29,450 nucleotides of DNA from a virus, in the UHGV virus genome UHGV-0338605. One strand, given 5' to 3'. The position numbers and the translations under genes were made by a program. Below are positions 4,144 through 24,158 of the stretch, piece by piece (the first letter of the stretch is position 1; each line of letters begins with the position of its first letter). Under the pieces are notes generated by a model. That model was not told the origin of the DNA and made no database searches. It worked only from the letters and a program-made list of their open reading frames with translations.

Positions 4144-4160
4144 ATTACCTAAAAGGTAAT
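4144..4160. promoter_or_regulatory. 17-bp palindrome ATTACC-TAAAA-GGTAAT, candidate operator, copy 2 of 6
   Basis: Read directly; about 90 bp upstream of the ATG at 4250 in an AT-rich promoter-like stretch. Confidence 0.6.
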
Positions 4161-4470: not shown

Positions 4471-6141
4471 ATGGCGGAAACCGAAAAAGAGCGTCTGCTG
4501 AAGCAGCTCGCACAGCTGAAGAATGAGCGCACATCGTTCGAGTCGCACTGGCGTGACCTGAGCGACTTCATCAATCCGCGCGGCTCTCGCTTTCTGACGT
4601 CTGATGTAAACCGTGATGATCGTCGAAACACCAAGATTGTTGATCCTACTGGCTCAATGGCTCAGCGCATTTTGTCCAGCGGCATGATGTCAGGCATCAC
4701 CAGCCCGGCACGTCCATGGTTCAAACTGGCAACGCCAGACCCTGACATGATGGATTATGGTCCGGTTAAAGTCTGGCTGGAAGTCGTGCAGCGCCGCATG
4801 AACGAAGTGTTCAACAAGTCAAACCTGTATCAGTCATTGCCTGTCATGTACGCCAGCCTTGGCACTTTCGGCACCGCCGCAATGGCTGTGCTCGAAGATG
4901 ACCAGGACGTGATCCGCACAATGCCTTTCCCGATTGGCAGCTACTACCTGGCTAACAGCCCGCGCGGCAGCGTCGACACATCCTTCCGCCAGTTCTCCAT
5001 GACTGTTCGTCAGCTTGTGCAGGAATTCGGTCTGGATAACGTCAGCTCATCGGTGCAGGGGATGTGGCAAAACGGCACGTATGAAACGTGGATCGAGGTT
5101 AACCACTGCATTACTCCAAACGTTAACCGTGATACCGGGAAGATGGACAGCAAGAACAAGCCGTTCCGCTCTGTGTACTTCGAGAGTGGCGGCGATTCCG
5201 ACAAGCTGCTGCGTGAGTCCGGCTTCGATGAATTCCCGATCCTGGCGCCGCGCTGGGAAGTTAACGGCGAAGACGTTTACGCATCTTCCTGCCCTGGCAT
5301 GCTGGCACTCGGTCAGGTGAAAGCCCTTCAGGTTGAGCAGAAGCGTAAAGCTCAGCTGATCGATAAGGCTACTAACCCGCCGATGGTCGCACCTACCTCG
5401 CTAAAAACACAGCGTGTTTCCCTGCTGCCTGGTGATGTGACGTACCTCGACGTGTTGAACGGTCAGGACGGTTTCAAACCTGCATACCTGGTAAACCCGA
5501 ATACTGCAGATCTGCTGGCTGATATTCAGGATACCCGCCAGACCATCAACAGCGCCTACTTCGTCGACCTCTTCATGATGCTGCAAAACATCAACACCCG
5601 CTCTATGCCGGTGGAAGCAGTGATCGAGATGAAGGAAGAGAAACTTCTGATGCTTGGCCCGGTGCTGGAGCGCCTGAACGACGAAGCACTTAATCCGCTT
5701 ATTGACCGCGTTTTCTCCATCATGGCGCGCAAGAACATGCTTCCTCCACCGCCGGACGTTATGCAGGGTATGCCGCTGCGTATCGAATACATCTCCGTTA
5801 TGGCGCAGGCTCAGAAATCTATCGGACTCACCAGCCTTTCGCAGACCGTTGGCTTCATTGGCCAACTCGCACAGCTCAAACCTGAAGCGCTCGACAAGCT
5901 CGACGTTGATCAGGCTATCGACGCGTTCTCCGAAATGTCCGGCGTATCGCCAACCGTCATCATTCCGCAGGAGCAGGTTCAGGGCATTCGTGAAGAGCGC
6001 GCCAAACAGGCACAAGCCGCACAGGCAATGGCAATGGGGCAGGCCGTAGCGCAGGGAGCCAAGACTCTCAGCGAGACGCAAACCACTGACCCGAGCGCAT
6101 TAACCGCTATCGCTAATGCAGCAGGAGCACCGCAGCAATGA
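4471..6141 (+). CDS. portal (head-to-tail connector) protein
   Basis: 556-aa ORF with RBS, first large gene of the head module after terminase; size and position typical of podovirus portals; Ala/Gln-rich C-terminal tail. Confidence 0.75.
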   Translation: MAETEKERLLKQLAQLKNERTSFESHWRDLSDFINPRGSRFLTSDVNRDDRRNTKIVDPTGSMAQRILSSGMMSGITSPARPWFKLATPDPDMMDYGPVKVWLEVVQRRMNEVFNKSNLYQSLPVMYASLGTFGTAAMAVLEDDQDVIRTMPFPIGSYYLANSPRGSVDTSFRQFSMTVRQLVQEFGLDNVSSSVQGMWQNGTYETWIEVNHCITPNVNRDTGKMDSKNKPFRSVYFESGGDSDKLLRESGFDEFPILAPRWEVNGEDVYASSCPGMLALGQVKALQVEQKRKAQLIDKATNPPMVAPTSLKTQRVSLLPGDVTYLDVLNGQDGFKPAYLVNPNTADLLADIQDTRQTINSAYFVDLFMMLQNINTRSMPVEAVIEMKEEKLLMLGPVLERLNDEALNPLIDRVFSIMARKNMLPPPPDVMQGMPLRIEYISVMAQAQKSIGLTSLSQTVGFIGQLAQLKPEALDKLDVDQAIDAFSEMSGVSPTVIIPQEQVQGIREERAKQAQAAQAMAMGQAVAQGAKTLSETQTTDPSALTAIANAAGAPQQ

Positions 6142-20812: not shown

Positions 20813-20837
20813 AGGCCGCTTTCGCGGCCTTGTTTTT
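20813..20837 (+). terminator. rho-independent terminator
   Basis: Stem AGGCCGC/GCGGCCT (20813-20830) with TTTC loop followed by TGTTTTT; ends the plus-strand late operon. Confidence 0.7.
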
Positions 20838-20997
20838 AACGAATGCCACCGCCGCCCGGGCGGGAATCCGCAGAACGCCCACCGCAGCGGGAGCCGTCAG
20901 CGGCAGTATCGCTGTCGTGCTGACAACGACCGGCAAAGGCCTGAGTTGAAGCTACCAGAGACAACAAAACGAACAGTGCAGCAAATGCTTTTTTCAT
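20836..20997 (-). CDS. small secreted peptide candidate (53 aa)
   Basis: Minus-strand ATG at 20997 gives MKKAFAALFVLLSLVASTQAFA followed by a short Cys-containing mature part. Coding status uncertain. Confidence 0.35.
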   Translation of the reverse strand: MKKAFAALFVLLSLVASTQAFAGRCQHDSDTAADGSRCGGRSADSRPGGGGIR

Positions 20998-21068
20998 TGT
21001 GACATTTCCATCTATAAGCCACCTCAATGTGGCGTCAATGAGTGTAGCACTGACTTTTGTTTCGTCCA

Positions 21069-21091
21069 CAAAAAAGCCCGCGCCGCGGGCT
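21069..21091 (-). terminator. rho-independent terminator for the 211-aa minus-strand gene
   Basis: Stem GCCCGC/GCGGGC (21076-21090); on the minus strand it is followed by TTTTTT (plus A6 at 21070-21075); sits just 3' of the CDS ending at 21099. Confidence 0.7.
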
Positions 21092-21098
21092 TAAAGAA

Positions 21099-21734
21099 CT
21101 ATTTTATTGGCAGCTTATGCTTTGAAATTATGGCCAATCTGTTTTGGAAGTTTTCCGCATCACCCCATAACCAGGTTTCACCTTTCTCAAGCTCTTCCTC
21201 GTTATTCATCTCTATCAGCTCGCATGTCATCATGTCGTAACCATAGAGGTGGAGGCCAAGTTCCAGTGCGTCATACATGCGAGCCTGCCAGAACGACATG
21301 CCTTCATGAGTCTGGTTGCGATCAGACACGATGATATCGTACCGTTCCAAGAGGTAGTTCATGAAGATGATGCCGGCGAAATCATGAAGCACAGCACGAT
21401 GCTTAGGCTTCTGGGTTCTCCATACCAATATCTGCGTGACAGGACGGCAGTTAAGATAGCTGTCAGGCTGGATAATGACACGATTGTAATACACTACCTC
21501 TTCGGTGAGGTCATTTATCAATGACAGTTCAAAGTGCGCCTGTGGAATCTCGCCTTTCTTACGATCGTCTACACGGACAACGCGGTATCCAGGAGCCAGA
21601 GAAACGCCTTTGACATCAGATGTGACATCGTTGCCGTTCACTAACTCTGAATACAGGGCGCGGTTGTCTGGAGTTTCGTTCAGATGAGCGAAAACCTCAG
21701 TTACCTTTGCTGGATTCAGCAGTTGTTGTGGCAT
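21099..21734 (-). CDS. hypothetical protein (211 aa), accessory gene of unknown function
   Basis: ATG at 21734 preceded by GAGGTG; own upstream palindrome site and downstream terminator; no family recognised. Confidence 0.65.
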   Translation of the reverse strand: MPQQLLNPAKVTEVFAHLNETPDNRALYSELVNGNDVTSDVKGVSLAPGYRVVRVDDRKKGEIPQAHFELSLINDLTEEVVYYNRVIIQPDSYLNCRPVTQILVWRTQKPKHRAVLHDFAGIIFMNYLLERYDIIVSDRNQTHEGMSFWQARMYDALELGLHLYGYDMMTCELIEMNNEEELEKGETWLWGDAENFQNRLAIISKHKLPIK

Positions 21735-21773
21735 ACATCACCTCATAATATATAGATGCTTCTTTAAGCGGGA

Positions 21774-21790
21774 TTTACCATTAGGGTAAA
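21774..21790. promoter_or_regulatory. 17-bp palindrome TTTACC-ATTAG-GGTAAA, candidate operator, copy 3 of 6
   Basis: Read directly; 40 bp upstream of the minus-strand ATG at 21734. Confidence 0.6.
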
Positions 21791-21927
21791 TGAACTATCC
21801 GAATGTTAAACGCCTTCGTACTCGTCAAATTTTCTCATGTGGGCTCCTCCTGTATCGGTGCCTAATCGCTATGGATCACCCGTAAGGTAATAGTACGCTA
21901 TTCACCCACAGTCTGCAATCTGTACAG

Positions 21928-21954
21928 AATTATTTAAAGGCACATCCCTGTGCC
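21928..21954 (-). terminator. possible terminator after the Bro-N gene
   Basis: Stem GGCACA/TGTGCC (21939-21954) with a 4-nt loop; on the minus strand it is followed by the T-rich TTTAAATAATTC; 9 bp 3' of the CDS ending at 21963. Confidence 0.4.
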
Positions 21955-21962
21955 GCCGCTAG

Positions 21963-22658
21963 TCAGAAGAATCCTGCTTTGTCGTTGATGTACTCCGCGT
22001 GAGTCTGGATATCACGCAGGCATTTGCTCACACCAACGATGTAGCAGAACATGGTGGTCAGTTCCGCCGCCGCGCCCGATACGTCATGCCCGTCTTCCTG
22101 TAACTGGTTCAGCAGATTCATCAGCAGTGAGTTCTCCGTCAGGCCGAGAACACCAGACGGCGAATGAATCAGGCTACGGTAGCCGGGCTTCAGTGGGGCG
22201 CTGTAGGTTTTGTTCTCTATCTTCATTGCCTGCATCACTGCTGATGCTGTGGCGTTTGCAACCTGGTCGGCAACCATCTTTATGCGTTCTTCCTGCGGGA
22301 GCGAGTTTTTAATGTAACTTCCGGTGCGGCGGATCTGAGGAAGAACCTCACCTGTAACCCATTTACGAAAGCGGTAGGGGATAGTGCCTGGTGTCACTGC
22401 GTCGCGGCAGCGGAGGATCAGTGTGTAGAGGCCTGACTCGGAGATGATGATCGATTCTTGCTCACCGCCAGGGGTGTCGGTTGAAGCGACGCCCTTCTCA
22501 TCATCATCAAGTTTTCGAACAGCATCTCGATGGTTTGCTATGCCTATAGCCCGACAAACATCTGAAGCGATAAACCATGGCTCACCATTAATGACGATTA
22601 CTCGTATATCGGCTTGGGATTCGAAAGAAAAAATGGACGTGCTTTTTGTAGCTGTCAT
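21963..22658 (-). CDS. Bro-N domain protein (antirepressor-like) with distinct C-terminal domain (231 aa)
   Basis: N-terminal FESQADIRVIVINGEPWFIASDVCRAIGIANHRDAVRKL matches the Bro-N/antirepressor N-terminal pattern; ATG at 22658 with AAGG upstream; C-terminal about 70 aa is paralogous to the small ORF at 23806-24066. Confidence 0.75.
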   Translation of the reverse strand: MTATKSTSIFSFESQADIRVIVINGEPWFIASDVCRAIGIANHRDAVRKLDDDEKGVASTDTPGGEQESIIISESGLYTLILRCRDAVTPGTIPYRFRKWVTGEVLPQIRRTGSYIKNSLPQEERIKMVADQVANATASAVMQAMKIENKTYSAPLKPGYRSLIHSPSGVLGLTENSLLMNLLNQLQEDGHDVSGAAAELTTMFCYIVGVSKCLRDIQTHAEYINDKAGFF

Positions 22659-22926
22659 AGTGGTTACCTTTTAGTCTGGTCAATCACCACTACCGACGCC
22701 AATCGGTTGGTGGTGAACTGTGCAGGGTTGGCGTAACCGGCTAAAAGGACCCGGCGCACCTTTCGGTGCCCCCACACAGCCCACCATAATACGAATGTGG
22801 CCGTGCTATACGCATAAAAAAACCGCTTGCGCGGTGAATGCGCCTTTTAGTAATCCGGGACGCCAATCCCGGCACTGGATTTTGCCAGTGCCCGATTACT
22901 ATGGCACAAGAGGAGTGCGATGTAAA

Positions 22927-22943
22927 TTTACCGAAAAGGTAAT
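22927..22943. promoter_or_regulatory. 17-bp palindrome TTTACC-GAAAA-GGTAAT, candidate operator, copy 4 of 6
   Basis: Read directly, in the divergent intergenic region 22659-23055. Confidence 0.6.
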
Positions 22944-23019
22944 GATAAACGCGGAGAAATATTAAAATCAACCGTATTTGGTTGATTGCGTTTAACGCTT
23001 GATCACCTGAAAGCAAGAT

Positions 23020-23036
23020 ATTACCTTTAAGGTAAT
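23020..23036. promoter_or_regulatory. 17-bp palindrome ATTACC-TTTAA-GGTAAT, candidate operator, copy 5 of 6
   Basis: Read directly; 20 bp upstream of the ATG at 23056. Confidence 0.6.
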
Positions 23037-23055
23037 GTTATTGTGAGGAAAAGCA

Positions 23056-23784
23056 ATGGAAGTTTTCTGGATAGTTGTTGGTGTTGTTACGGTGATTATT
23101 TACGTTATCAACCAGAACAGGACTAAGGTCTCTGATCGCACAGTCGTTAATCATCGCAAAACGATAAAGACCGAAGATGGAGAAATAACGATTAATCGTA
23201 CACAGGTGATAGACCACACCTCCACTCAGTTTCAAAAAACTGGAGGTAATGCGCCGGATATTTCAGTACATCCTGCTTATGATATATCGGTAATCCAGAC
23301 ATATTATAAACAACAGGAGTCAGCAAAAGAGAGGGCGCTGATTCAGCCAAAGCCATTTACAGCAGAGCTTCCACCTGGAGTGTCAACGCGTCCGGCATAT
23401 CATGACAGATTCCCAGGTGATGACATATCGTCTCAGTTACCTAAAAAAGCTCCTCAGGTAGTATCTGAGCCAGCAAGAATACCTTCTGTATCGCCATCAC
23501 AAGAAGAATCAGCTAACAGAGTTTCAAGTGGTAGTAAGCAGTGTTTGCGATGCAGAATAAACCTTCCATATGAAAAATTCAGGAAATCGTCAAAAAATCC
23601 AGATGGATTGACTAAGTGGTGTGCAAGGTGTCTCGATGGCCCAAAGAATACACGCCATATGAAGTGGTGCCCAATTTGTAATGTCCGCAGAAAACGCACC
23701 AGCTTTTACTCTAATAATCAAAATGCGGACGGCTTAATGGCATGGTGCAAAACGTGCTGGGACGAGCACAAAGCGAAACGATAG
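23056..23784 (+). CDS. membrane-anchored protein with tandem Cys4 zinc-ribbon-like repeats (242 aa)
   Basis: GAGGAA RBS; N-terminal hydrophobic helix FWIVVGVVTVIIYVI; C-terminus carries two repeats of C-x2-C-x(17-20)-DGL-x3-WC-x2-C; AT-rich; followed by a strong terminator. Confidence 0.65.
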   Translation: MEVFWIVVGVVTVIIYVINQNRTKVSDRTVVNHRKTIKTEDGEITINRTQVIDHTSTQFQKTGGNAPDISVHPAYDISVIQTYYKQQESAKERALIQPKPFTAELPPGVSTRPAYHDRFPGDDISSQLPKKAPQVVSEPARIPSVSPSQEESANRVSSGSKQCLRCRINLPYEKFRKSSKNPDGLTKWCARCLDGPKNTRHMKWCPICNVRRKRTSFYSNNQNADGLMAWCKTCWDEHKAKR

Positions 23785-23808
23785 GCCGCTCTTGCGGCCT
23801 TTTTTTTA
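23784..23808 (+). terminator. rho-independent terminator
   Basis: Stem GGCCGC/GCGGCC (23784-23799) with TCTT loop followed by T8 (23800-23807). Confidence 0.75.
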
Positions 23809-24066
23809 TGTGGTTTGTTTTCGTAATTGTTCGGCACAATAGTCGAGATGTGTTTGCAGATCCTTCATGGATAGCTGTGAGCTGGTGACATAGTTCACCA
23901 GTGCAGTAAGTTCGGCCAGCGGCCCGTCGACGTTGAACCCGTCTTTATCAAGTTCCCGCAATAAAGTCATAAGGTGCGAGTTCTCCACCAGGGATATAAC
24001 GCCTCCCGGCGTGTGTACTCTTTCATAAAATCCATCTTCCAGTGGGTGGTGATACCGCTGTTGCAT
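23806..24066 (-). CDS. small protein (86 aa) paralogous to the C-terminal domain of the Bro-N protein
   Basis: ATG at 24066 preceded by GGAG (the track ORF begins at a TTG at 24084). About 40-45% identity by eye to residues about 160-225 of the 231-aa Bro-N protein (shared ENS-LM-LL, DG-V-G, AELT, QTH-Y). Confidence 0.6.
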   Translation of the reverse strand: MQQRYHHPLEDGFYERVHTPGGVISLVENSHLMTLLRELDKDGFNVDGPLAELTALVNYVTSSQLSMKDLQTHLDYCAEQLRKQTT

Positions 24067-24141
24067 TAACCATTCTCCATACAAACACTGTATATATATA
24101 CATATATCAGATGAACCACTGTTTCACCAGTATGATTTTTA

Positions 24142-24158
24142 ATTACCTGTGAGGTAAT
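24142..24158. promoter_or_regulatory. 17-bp palindrome ATTACC-TGTGA-GGTAAT, candidate operator, copy 6 of 6
   Basis: Read directly; between the divergent starts of the 86-aa gene (24066, minus) and the tail spike gene (24262, plus). Confidence 0.6.

Follow-up and report, generated by a model that had tools for sequence, protein, structure and literature searches.

The window analysed here, the whole of a 29,450-nucleotide (nt) viral DNA designated UHGV virus genome UHGV-0338605, is a prophage of the epsilon15/phiV10/TL-2011b type (Uetakevirus-like podovirus). Positions 21099 to 21734 of its minus strand encode a protein of 211 amino acids (aa) belonging to PHROG 1349, a family annotated as "function unknown." Our analysis indicates that this gene is very probably a mobile accessory gene (moron), inserted as cargo in a slot whose content varies between related prophages. 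As judged from a structural model, its product likely adopts a GNAT-like fold in which the cleft is functional. The layout of the upstream region suggests that the gene is probably controlled by the prophage repressor and expressed at infection or induction, not in the quiet lysogen.

The gene and the signals immediately flanking it are as follows.

21099..21734 (-): coding sequence, 211 aa, PHROG 1349 family, predicted GNAT-like fold
21744..21739 (-): Shine-Dalgarno sequence GAGGTG, spaced by 4 nt from the ATG, by direct reading of the sequence
21068..21092 (-): intrinsic terminator of the gene, stem 21092..21074 plus T-run

The open reading frame (ORF) starts with ATG, and the identical protein is present in RefSeq (WP_001136300.1), where it is annotated as the "hypothetical protein" product of a coding sequence in E. 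coli O166:H15 JNE070796 and IAI39. The protein is acidic and soluble (24.6 kDa, isoelectric point 5.3), with no hydrophobic or transmembrane segment. These elements bear out the original prediction, made from the sequence alone, of a 211-aa gene with a GAGGTG ribosome-binding site and a strong terminator directly after the stop codon. The terminator hairpin begins 6 nt past the stop, comprises 8 pairs (6 G-C) followed by TTTTTTGT, and has a folding energy of -16.1 kcal/mol.

The same prediction had described the gene as an orphan, which database searches contradicted. The match to PHROG 1349 was full length (E = 2.9e-78), residues 1-209 aligning with positions 10-210 of the 210-position profile. 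A word-indexed search returned 94 homolog clusters in Enterobacterales (clustering at 90% identity), 36-95% identical to the 211-aa protein, from sources including Salmonella, Dickeya, Serratia, Klebsiella, Yersinia, Erwinia, Photorhabdus, and Xenorhabdus. In an exhaustive profile search, the 50%-identity representatives numbered 913, and E values were below 1e-10 for 412. Nearly all of the representatives listed were single-domain proteins of ~200 aa, and the longer members were uninformative as to fusions, bar one DUF5397 tail. All 75 remote relatives matched PHROG 1349. Pfam returned no match for the 211-aa protein (E≤0.1) or for the 75 remote relatives (E≤0.01), NCBIfam none for either set, and the PDB sequences none for the protein or for either of two profiles. 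Among the PADLOC-DB v2 defence profiles, there was no match for the protein at E≤1 or for the second allele and the alternative slot cargoes described below at E≤0.01.

The proposed search for remote homology to structural or assembly proteins revealed only the function-unknown PHROG 1349. The gene had been said to lack virion-protein features, in agreement with the absence of any structural PHROG or Pfam match, with the enzyme-like predicted fold, and with its variable presence in the same backbone. GiPD474 and HepS proved to be unrelated (an ATPase and a HEPN protein, respectively). Literature searches for WP_001136300.1, for GNAT proteins in prophage defence, and for DUF4760 returned nothing relevant. 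PHROG 1349 is a large (~900 clusters at 50% identity), unnamed family with neither a Pfam model nor a solved structure, and it ranges over podo-, sipho-, and myovirus prophages of Enterobacterales (E. coli, Salmonella, Yersinia, Erwinia, Dickeya, Photorhabdus/Xenorhabdus).

Variable slot and spread of the family

The gene lies in a 3.4-kb accessory island (20836..24084) located between the internal-virion-protein genes and the tailspike gene (24262). The island contains, in this order, a 53-aa gene (-), the 211-aa gene (-), a Bro-N antirepressor gene (-), a 242-aa gene (+), and a 92-aa gene (-). The description of the 211-aa gene as antisense to the late operon did not hold: the gene overlaps no late gene, and the island separates two late units, the first of which, that of the internal-virion-protein genes, extends to 20806 and is followed by a terminator of its own (20813..20830).

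The flanks of the slot occupied by the 211-aa gene were found in ~500 of 5,426 complete E. coli genomes. The slot is bounded on the left by the terminator hairpin of the gene, which is common to all cargo types, and on the right by a segment of the backbone. The 211-aa gene was present in the slot in 13 genomes, and a second allele (WP_001260052.1, 210 aa; for example, L115 1767-2399, from E. coli 09-02E) occupied the same slot in 93 further genomes. The two proteins are 30% identical and belong to the same family, as indicated by BLASTP (2e-17) and hhalign (probability 99.6%). Other cargoes comprised a DUF4760 protein, a YafO toxin with a small partner, a DUF2335 pair, and two small membrane proteins. 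In phiV10, the slot was devoid of such cargo.

Family members were also found in other settings. In the lambdoid phage LLS, gp57 is 84% identical to the second allele and is located after the lysis (Rz) genes, with the operator described below still attached. In prophages, members were found between the major tail protein gene and that of the tape measure. In a lambda-like Xenorhabdus prophage, the flanking genes were those for the tape measure and gpM; an E217-like Yersinia myovirus prophage had its copy between the tail tube genes and the presumed tape measure gene, and P2-like Erwinia prophages had theirs beside the attachment site. Erwinia amylovora carries a lone, remnant-like copy between ihfA and btuE, adjoining the attachment site of a P2-like prophage, and Photorhabdus carries copies in islands. 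The family is therefore represented in lambda-like, E217-like, P2-like, and P1-like prophages and by solitary copies. The search for a syntenic Erwinia copy for determination of the ratio of nonsynonymous to synonymous substitution rates led to no candidate being retained, the other Erwinia loci being elsewhere and the E. amylovora copy being remnant-like.

Two properties of morons were apparent in these comparisons. The gene separates genes that are direct neighbours in related phages, the slot being devoid of this cargo in phiV10 and filled by other cargo elsewhere, and it has its own terminator, found right past the stop codon in all 17 flanks read (the window and 16 homolog loci), even where the gene is co-oriented inside tail operons. 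Clustering of the neighbours of homologs in other genomes, as had been proposed, revealed varied contexts among 106 loci and no partner or antitoxin gene conserved across them. The presence of a dedicated terminator in all flanks read and the absence of a conserved partner indicate moron behaviour and argue against a structural role or a toxin-antitoxin pair. The earlier view of a self-contained accessory unit was thereby upheld. As with the classical morons bor and lom of lambda and sieA of P22, an extra gene of variable presence is found between otherwise adjacent genes, often in a late region, with its own terminator and a candidate promoter. Unlike classical morons, which are expressed from the repressed prophage, the 211-aa gene carries two immunity operators, pointing to control by the repressor. 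It also differs from the genes for the GNAT toxins TacT, AtaT, and KacT by the lack of a conserved adjacent antitoxin gene in the 106 loci and of an Acetyltransf Pfam match.

Predicted fold

Structure prediction and fold comparison, also proposed at the outset, led to a confident model. AlphaFold2, with a 40-sequence alignment as the input, produced a model with a predicted local distance difference test (pLDDT) score of 86.4 and a predicted template modelling (pTM) score of 0.83. In this model, strands 49-55, 66-73, 78-87, and 97-105 precede helix 118-130, which is followed by strand 133-135, helix 142-157, and strands 161-166 and 198-203. This order corresponds to beta4-alpha3-beta5-alpha4-beta6-beta7 of the GNAT core, and the model contains the beta4-alpha3-beta5-alpha4 fold with splayed beta4 and beta5 that defines this core. 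Foldseek searches against the PDB returned GNAT and NAT_SF proteins, the best structural match being the GNAT-like domain of ICL2 (Rv1916). Against BFVD, the best matches were uncharacterised phage proteins (TM 0.6-0.8), including one from the Agrobacterium jumbo phage Atu_ph07, followed by "NAT_SF" and acetyltransferase proteins. Homologs of the family are present in lytic jumbo phages. The structural neighbours of the model within the GNAT superfamily included NatD/Naa40, Hat1, AAC(2')-Ia, and the C-terminal domain of ICL2 (Rv1916), from which the model differs by an extra short helix before alpha3.

Residues conserved in at least 76% of the divergent family were N23, Y81, Q100, W104, R105, D137, Q140, T141, G144, W148 (invariant), and W189 in model numbering (ORF number = model number + 1; D137 of the model is D138 of the ORF). 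In the model, these residues map onto beta4 and the beta5-alpha4 junction and line the cleft in which GNAT enzymes hold the pantetheine moiety of acyl-coenzyme A (acyl-CoA) and the acceptor. Since the conserved residues line a GNAT-type cleft, acyl transfer or the binding of an acyl-CoA-like ligand would be the likeliest chemistry, and we give the transfer of an acyl group from acyl-CoA, as suggested by the model, close to an even chance. A confident GNAT-like model with a conserved cleft makes the protein a directly testable enzyme candidate.

Phages are known to produce effectors with the GNAT fold that counter host immunity on behalf of the phage, such as AcrVA5, which acetylates Cas12a, and Mom of phage Mu, which is responsible for DNA adenine modification. 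The 211-aa protein resembles both as a small phage accessory protein with a GNAT-type fold encoded by a single gene. A Mom homolog was a weak BFVD match (rank 40, TM 0.34), and no specific similarity to AcrVA5 or Mom was detected beyond the superfamily fold.

Immunity operators and the upstream region

The original prediction had placed a palindromic promoter site 40 bp upstream of the gene. A palindrome is present at 21791..21773, with its end 38 nt from the ATG, and it is one of eight copies of a 17-bp operator, not a promoter. Its 7-bp arms fall below the 8-nt minimum arm used in the repeat scan. As an RNA hairpin or terminator in the leader of the gene, it was rejected, the fold being weak (about -5 kcal/mol). 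The elements located upstream of the gene are as follows.

21773..21791: proximal operator ATTTACC-CTAAT-GGTAAAT, perfect 7-bp arms, first element inside the cargo cassette
21806..21838 (-): mini-ORF MRKFDEYEGV, 10 codons, with an AGGAGG site, in the leader between the operator copies
21876..21890: distal operator TTACC-ttacg-GGTGA, one mismatch, in the conserved backbone, abutting the -10-like TACTAT
21890..21918 (-): candidate sigma-70 promoter, TTGCAG (21918..21913), 17 nt, TACTAT (21895..21890)

The window was searched with the pattern TTACC-N5-GGTAA, allowing one mismatch, which is the core of the 17-bp motif ATTACC-N5-GGTAAT. Eight sites were found, versus 0.41 expected, and none of 100 shuffles reached this number. 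All eight are in regulatory positions, including those of late genes.

813-845: tandem pair before terS
4145-4159: before the head-tail adaptor operon
21775-21789 and 21876-21890: before the 211-aa gene
22928-22942: before the antirepressor/C4 unit
23021-23035: before the 242-aa gene
24143-24157: before the tailspike gene

The same search revealed 14 sites in phiV10 (0.83 expected), three of which are adjacent copies between the repressor gene and a divergent cro-like gene, and more of which flank the repressor gene. The JNE070796 prophage, a close relative, displayed the same pattern, with a three-site cI-cro operator. Since a set of three 17-bp palindromes separating a repressor gene from a divergent cro gene is characteristic of an OR-type operator, we infer from its positions that the motif is the operator of the prophage repressor, which is of the WP_000836290.1 type. 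The scattering of operators over the window resembles the genome-wide "stoperator" arrangement known in cluster A mycobacteriophages.

The promoter of the antirepressor/C4 unit (TTGATT-18-TATCAT, 22971..22942) matches the consensus at 9 of 12 positions and was called by the consensus scan. Its -10 hexamer directly abuts an operator (TATCAT-TACC..., operator 22942..22928). The region upstream of the 211-aa gene has the same arrangement, a -10 hexamer abutting an operator, in the conserved backbone. Because a stable lysogen requires the antirepressor promoter to be off and the 211-aa gene shares the arrangement of this promoter, the gene is probably under the control of the repressor. This makes the proposed expression from the prophage doubtful. 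Overexpression of the repressor of ZX5, a close relative, silences late transcription (PMC9782041). Expression of the 211-aa gene is accordingly to be sought at infection or induction and not only in the resting lysogen.

The layout consisting of a -35 hexamer, 17 nt, and a -10 hexamer with the palindrome recurs in LLS, L115, L017, L026, L027, and Yersinia. Its occurrences include the region upstream of the second allele and loci of the Salmonella, Dickeya, Xenorhabdus, and Yersinia types. Upstream of LLS gp57, it reads TTGGCT, 17 nt, TACTAT-TACC-cagaa-GGTAA. LLS has a different immunity region and a single perfect operator site, the one at gp57, so that the operator must have moved along with the cassette. 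The solitary copy of E. amylovora retains a homologous promoter (TTGATT, 17 nt, TACACT) that lacks the palindrome. An operator-plus-gene cassette that moves between unrelated phages offers a concrete case of morons bringing or losing their regulation.

In the window, a 101-nt segment extends between the backbone operator and the second, perfect operator. This segment is absent from L016 and L017 (about 5880-5998, versus 21773-21890 in the window), which have a single hybrid operator in place of the two copies, suggesting that the operator copies act as recombination junctions during cargo exchange. The mini-ORF is kept in DUF4760-type prophages, in which a terminator follows it, and is absent from L016 and L017. 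It was rejected as the truncated start of another cargo, since its sequence is not found at the N terminus of any of the three alternative cargo proteins examined. No Rfam family was detected in the leader of the 211-aa gene.

Proposed role, alternatives, and neighbouring genes

According to the reading that we favour, the gene would be the cargo of a mobile single-gene moron encoding a soluble ~24.6-kDa PHROG 1349 protein of divergent GNAT fold, in a slot directly downstream of a P1-type immI module (C4 antisense RNA and Bro-N antirepressor). Transcription would start from the weak sigma-70 promoter, whose -10 hexamer abuts an immunity operator, would proceed through a second operator 38 nt before the ATG, and would end at the terminator of the unit. 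The prophage repressor would keep the gene at a low level of expression in the lysogen, and expression would occur when the repressor is absent or inactivated, in fresh infection or upon induction. The enzyme would acylate, or bind an acyl-CoA-like ligand for, a target of the host or of a competitor and thereby serve the phage, e.g., by neutralising a host defence or by remodelling the host. That the protein works to the advantage of the phage in the absence of the repressor, in counter-defence or host takeover, is a tentative proposal, to which we give somewhat less than an even chance. By extension, PHROG 1349 might represent a new class of phage acyltransferase-like effectors, borne on portable repressor-gated cassettes and modifying a component of host immunity or translation for the lytic programme, which we regard as unlikely. 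If so, the cassette would consist of a promoter, an immunity operator, a gene, and a terminator and would be fired only without the repressor, and the two 30%-identical alleles found in one slot would reflect different target specificities in an arms race. As it stands, the gene falls within known kinds, being a moron and encoding a GNAT-fold protein, and it does not establish a new principle.

Several observations weigh against the favoured reading, on the side of both chemistry and regulation. The motif A loop Q/R-x-x-G-x-G/A was not recognisable by inspection after beta4 (WRTQKPKHRAVLHDFAG), where the family consensus is variable and retains only L-[AP]-[GST] at the N terminus of alpha3. 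There is no sequence-level tie to GNAT entries of Pfam or the PDB, the 75 remote members included; identity to solved GNAT proteins is 6-12%, with no match to the Pfam GNAT clan. The protein could for these reasons be a pseudoenzyme. Because the canonical loop is unrecognisable, we use the label "GNAT-like fold with a conserved cleft" and not that of a proven acetyltransferase. The candidate promoter, ~150 nt upstream of the gene, matches the consensus at only 7 of 12 positions, which is why the consensus scan did not call it. The intact solitary copies of E. amylovora and Photorhabdus have no operator, and these copies would fit a host-beneficial, constitutive function better than one serving only the phage. 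In LLS, the operator has no matching immunity region. Finally, in phiV10, an operator-like site precedes oac by 40 nt, and this gene is reportedly active in lysogens; if so, a nearby operator is not in itself proof of silence in the lysogen.

In a rather unlikely alternative, the gene would be a lysogen-expressed moron for defence or superinfection exclusion, its product acylating a component of the incoming phage or, in an Abi-like manner, a component of host translation. The hypervariable slot can also harbour a YafO toxin-antitoxin pair or genes for small membrane proteins, the coexistence of two 30%-identical alleles in the same slot suggests diversifying pressure, and the intact solitary chromosomal copies are preceded by an operator-less version of the same promoter. 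The own terminator of the gene is also in keeping with this role, as is its position, which we take to be equivalent to that of sieA/immI between the injection protein and tailspike genes on the P22 map. However, the protein, the second allele, and all of the alternative slot cargoes lack PADLOC matches, the start of the promoter is overlapped by the operator in exactly the manner seen for the antirepressor unit, homologs occur in lytic jumbo phages, and no partner or antitoxin gene is conserved in the 106 loci.

The missing CoA motif and the lack of sequence similarity to active GNAT proteins are also compatible with a non-catalytic ligand sensor or protein binder with a GNAT-like structure, which might modulate the antirepressor/repressor switch or sequester a host factor. 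The best structural match of the model is a domain of this kind, since ICL2 (Rv1916) binds acetyl-CoA as an allosteric ligand and not as a substrate, and a Bro-N antirepressor gene adjoins the family member in 35 of the loci examined. This alternative is nevertheless improbable, more so than lysogen defence, as polar residues (Q101, R106, D138, Q141, and T142 in ORF numbering) are conserved at the position of the GNAT active cleft and an antirepressor neighbour is lacking in most contexts other than epsilon15-like phages. A virion or tail-assembly accessory protein is hardly conceivable. The gene is co-oriented with tail genes in several sipho- and myovirus prophages (tail protein, tape measure, gpM, and tube genes), but it retains its own terminator and large flanking gaps even there. 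It is found, in addition, in only 13 (plus 93 for the second allele) of the ~500 genomes with this backbone, whose prophages are otherwise near-identical, its predicted product is enzyme-like, and the family also occurs past lysis genes, beside attachment sites, and as solitary copies.

The neighbouring features of the island are as follows.

20836..20997 (-): gene for a 53-aa secreted or membrane peptide, phrog_14503 "moron," downstream neighbour of the 211-aa gene
21939..21954 (-): weak terminator candidate past the antirepressor stop, hairpin GGCACA-GGGA-TGTGCC then TTTAAATAATT
21963..22658 (-): Bro-N antirepressor gene, upstream neighbour of the 211-aa gene
22706..22971 (-): immI-type control region of the antirepressor, by promoter scan, operator search, and Rfam

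The Rfam search of the region upstream of the antirepressor gene detected C4 a1/b1 sites (45.1 bits), an IsrK-like small RNA (77.9 bits), and a C4 antisense RNA (77.7 bits). The antirepressor unit resembles immI of P1 and P7, which combines a C1-controlled promoter, a C4 antisense RNA, and an antirepressor, in its operator-overlapped promoter, C4 a1/b1 sites, and C4 RNA. It is a P1/P7-type immI module carried by an epsilon15-like podovirus prophage, with the 211-aa gene directly behind it. The latter is outside the described immI gene set and has its own operator, leader, and terminator. The weak hairpin that follows the antirepressor gene (-10.1 kcal/mol) is kept in all backbones. In the closely related DNA region of phage ZX5, ORF4 is annotated as an anti-repressor, the activity of which was demonstrated by overexpression (PMC9782041).

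The 53-aa peptide bears a signal peptide and is rich in Gly and Arg. Directly past the terminator of the 211-aa gene, a promoter-like sequence (TTGACG-16-TATAGA; region 20836-21073, minus strand) precedes the 53-aa gene, with no operator. Since it has its own promoter-like site and no operator, the 53-aa gene may be the one in the island that is truly expressed in the lysogen. The 242-aa protein (23056-23784, plus strand; phrog_6762) has a C-terminal zinc-finger-like segment of ~45 residues, the PHROG matches of which are to endonuclease VII, HNH, and Lar-like restriction-alleviation families (E values of 1e-10 to 1e-5), and an operator copy is located 21 nt before the start of its gene. Between the 92-aa gene (minus strand; epsilon15 gp19-like) and the tailspike gene, positions 24088-24103 contain a LexA-box-like site, CTGTATATATATACAT, with one mismatch from CTGT-N8-ACAG.

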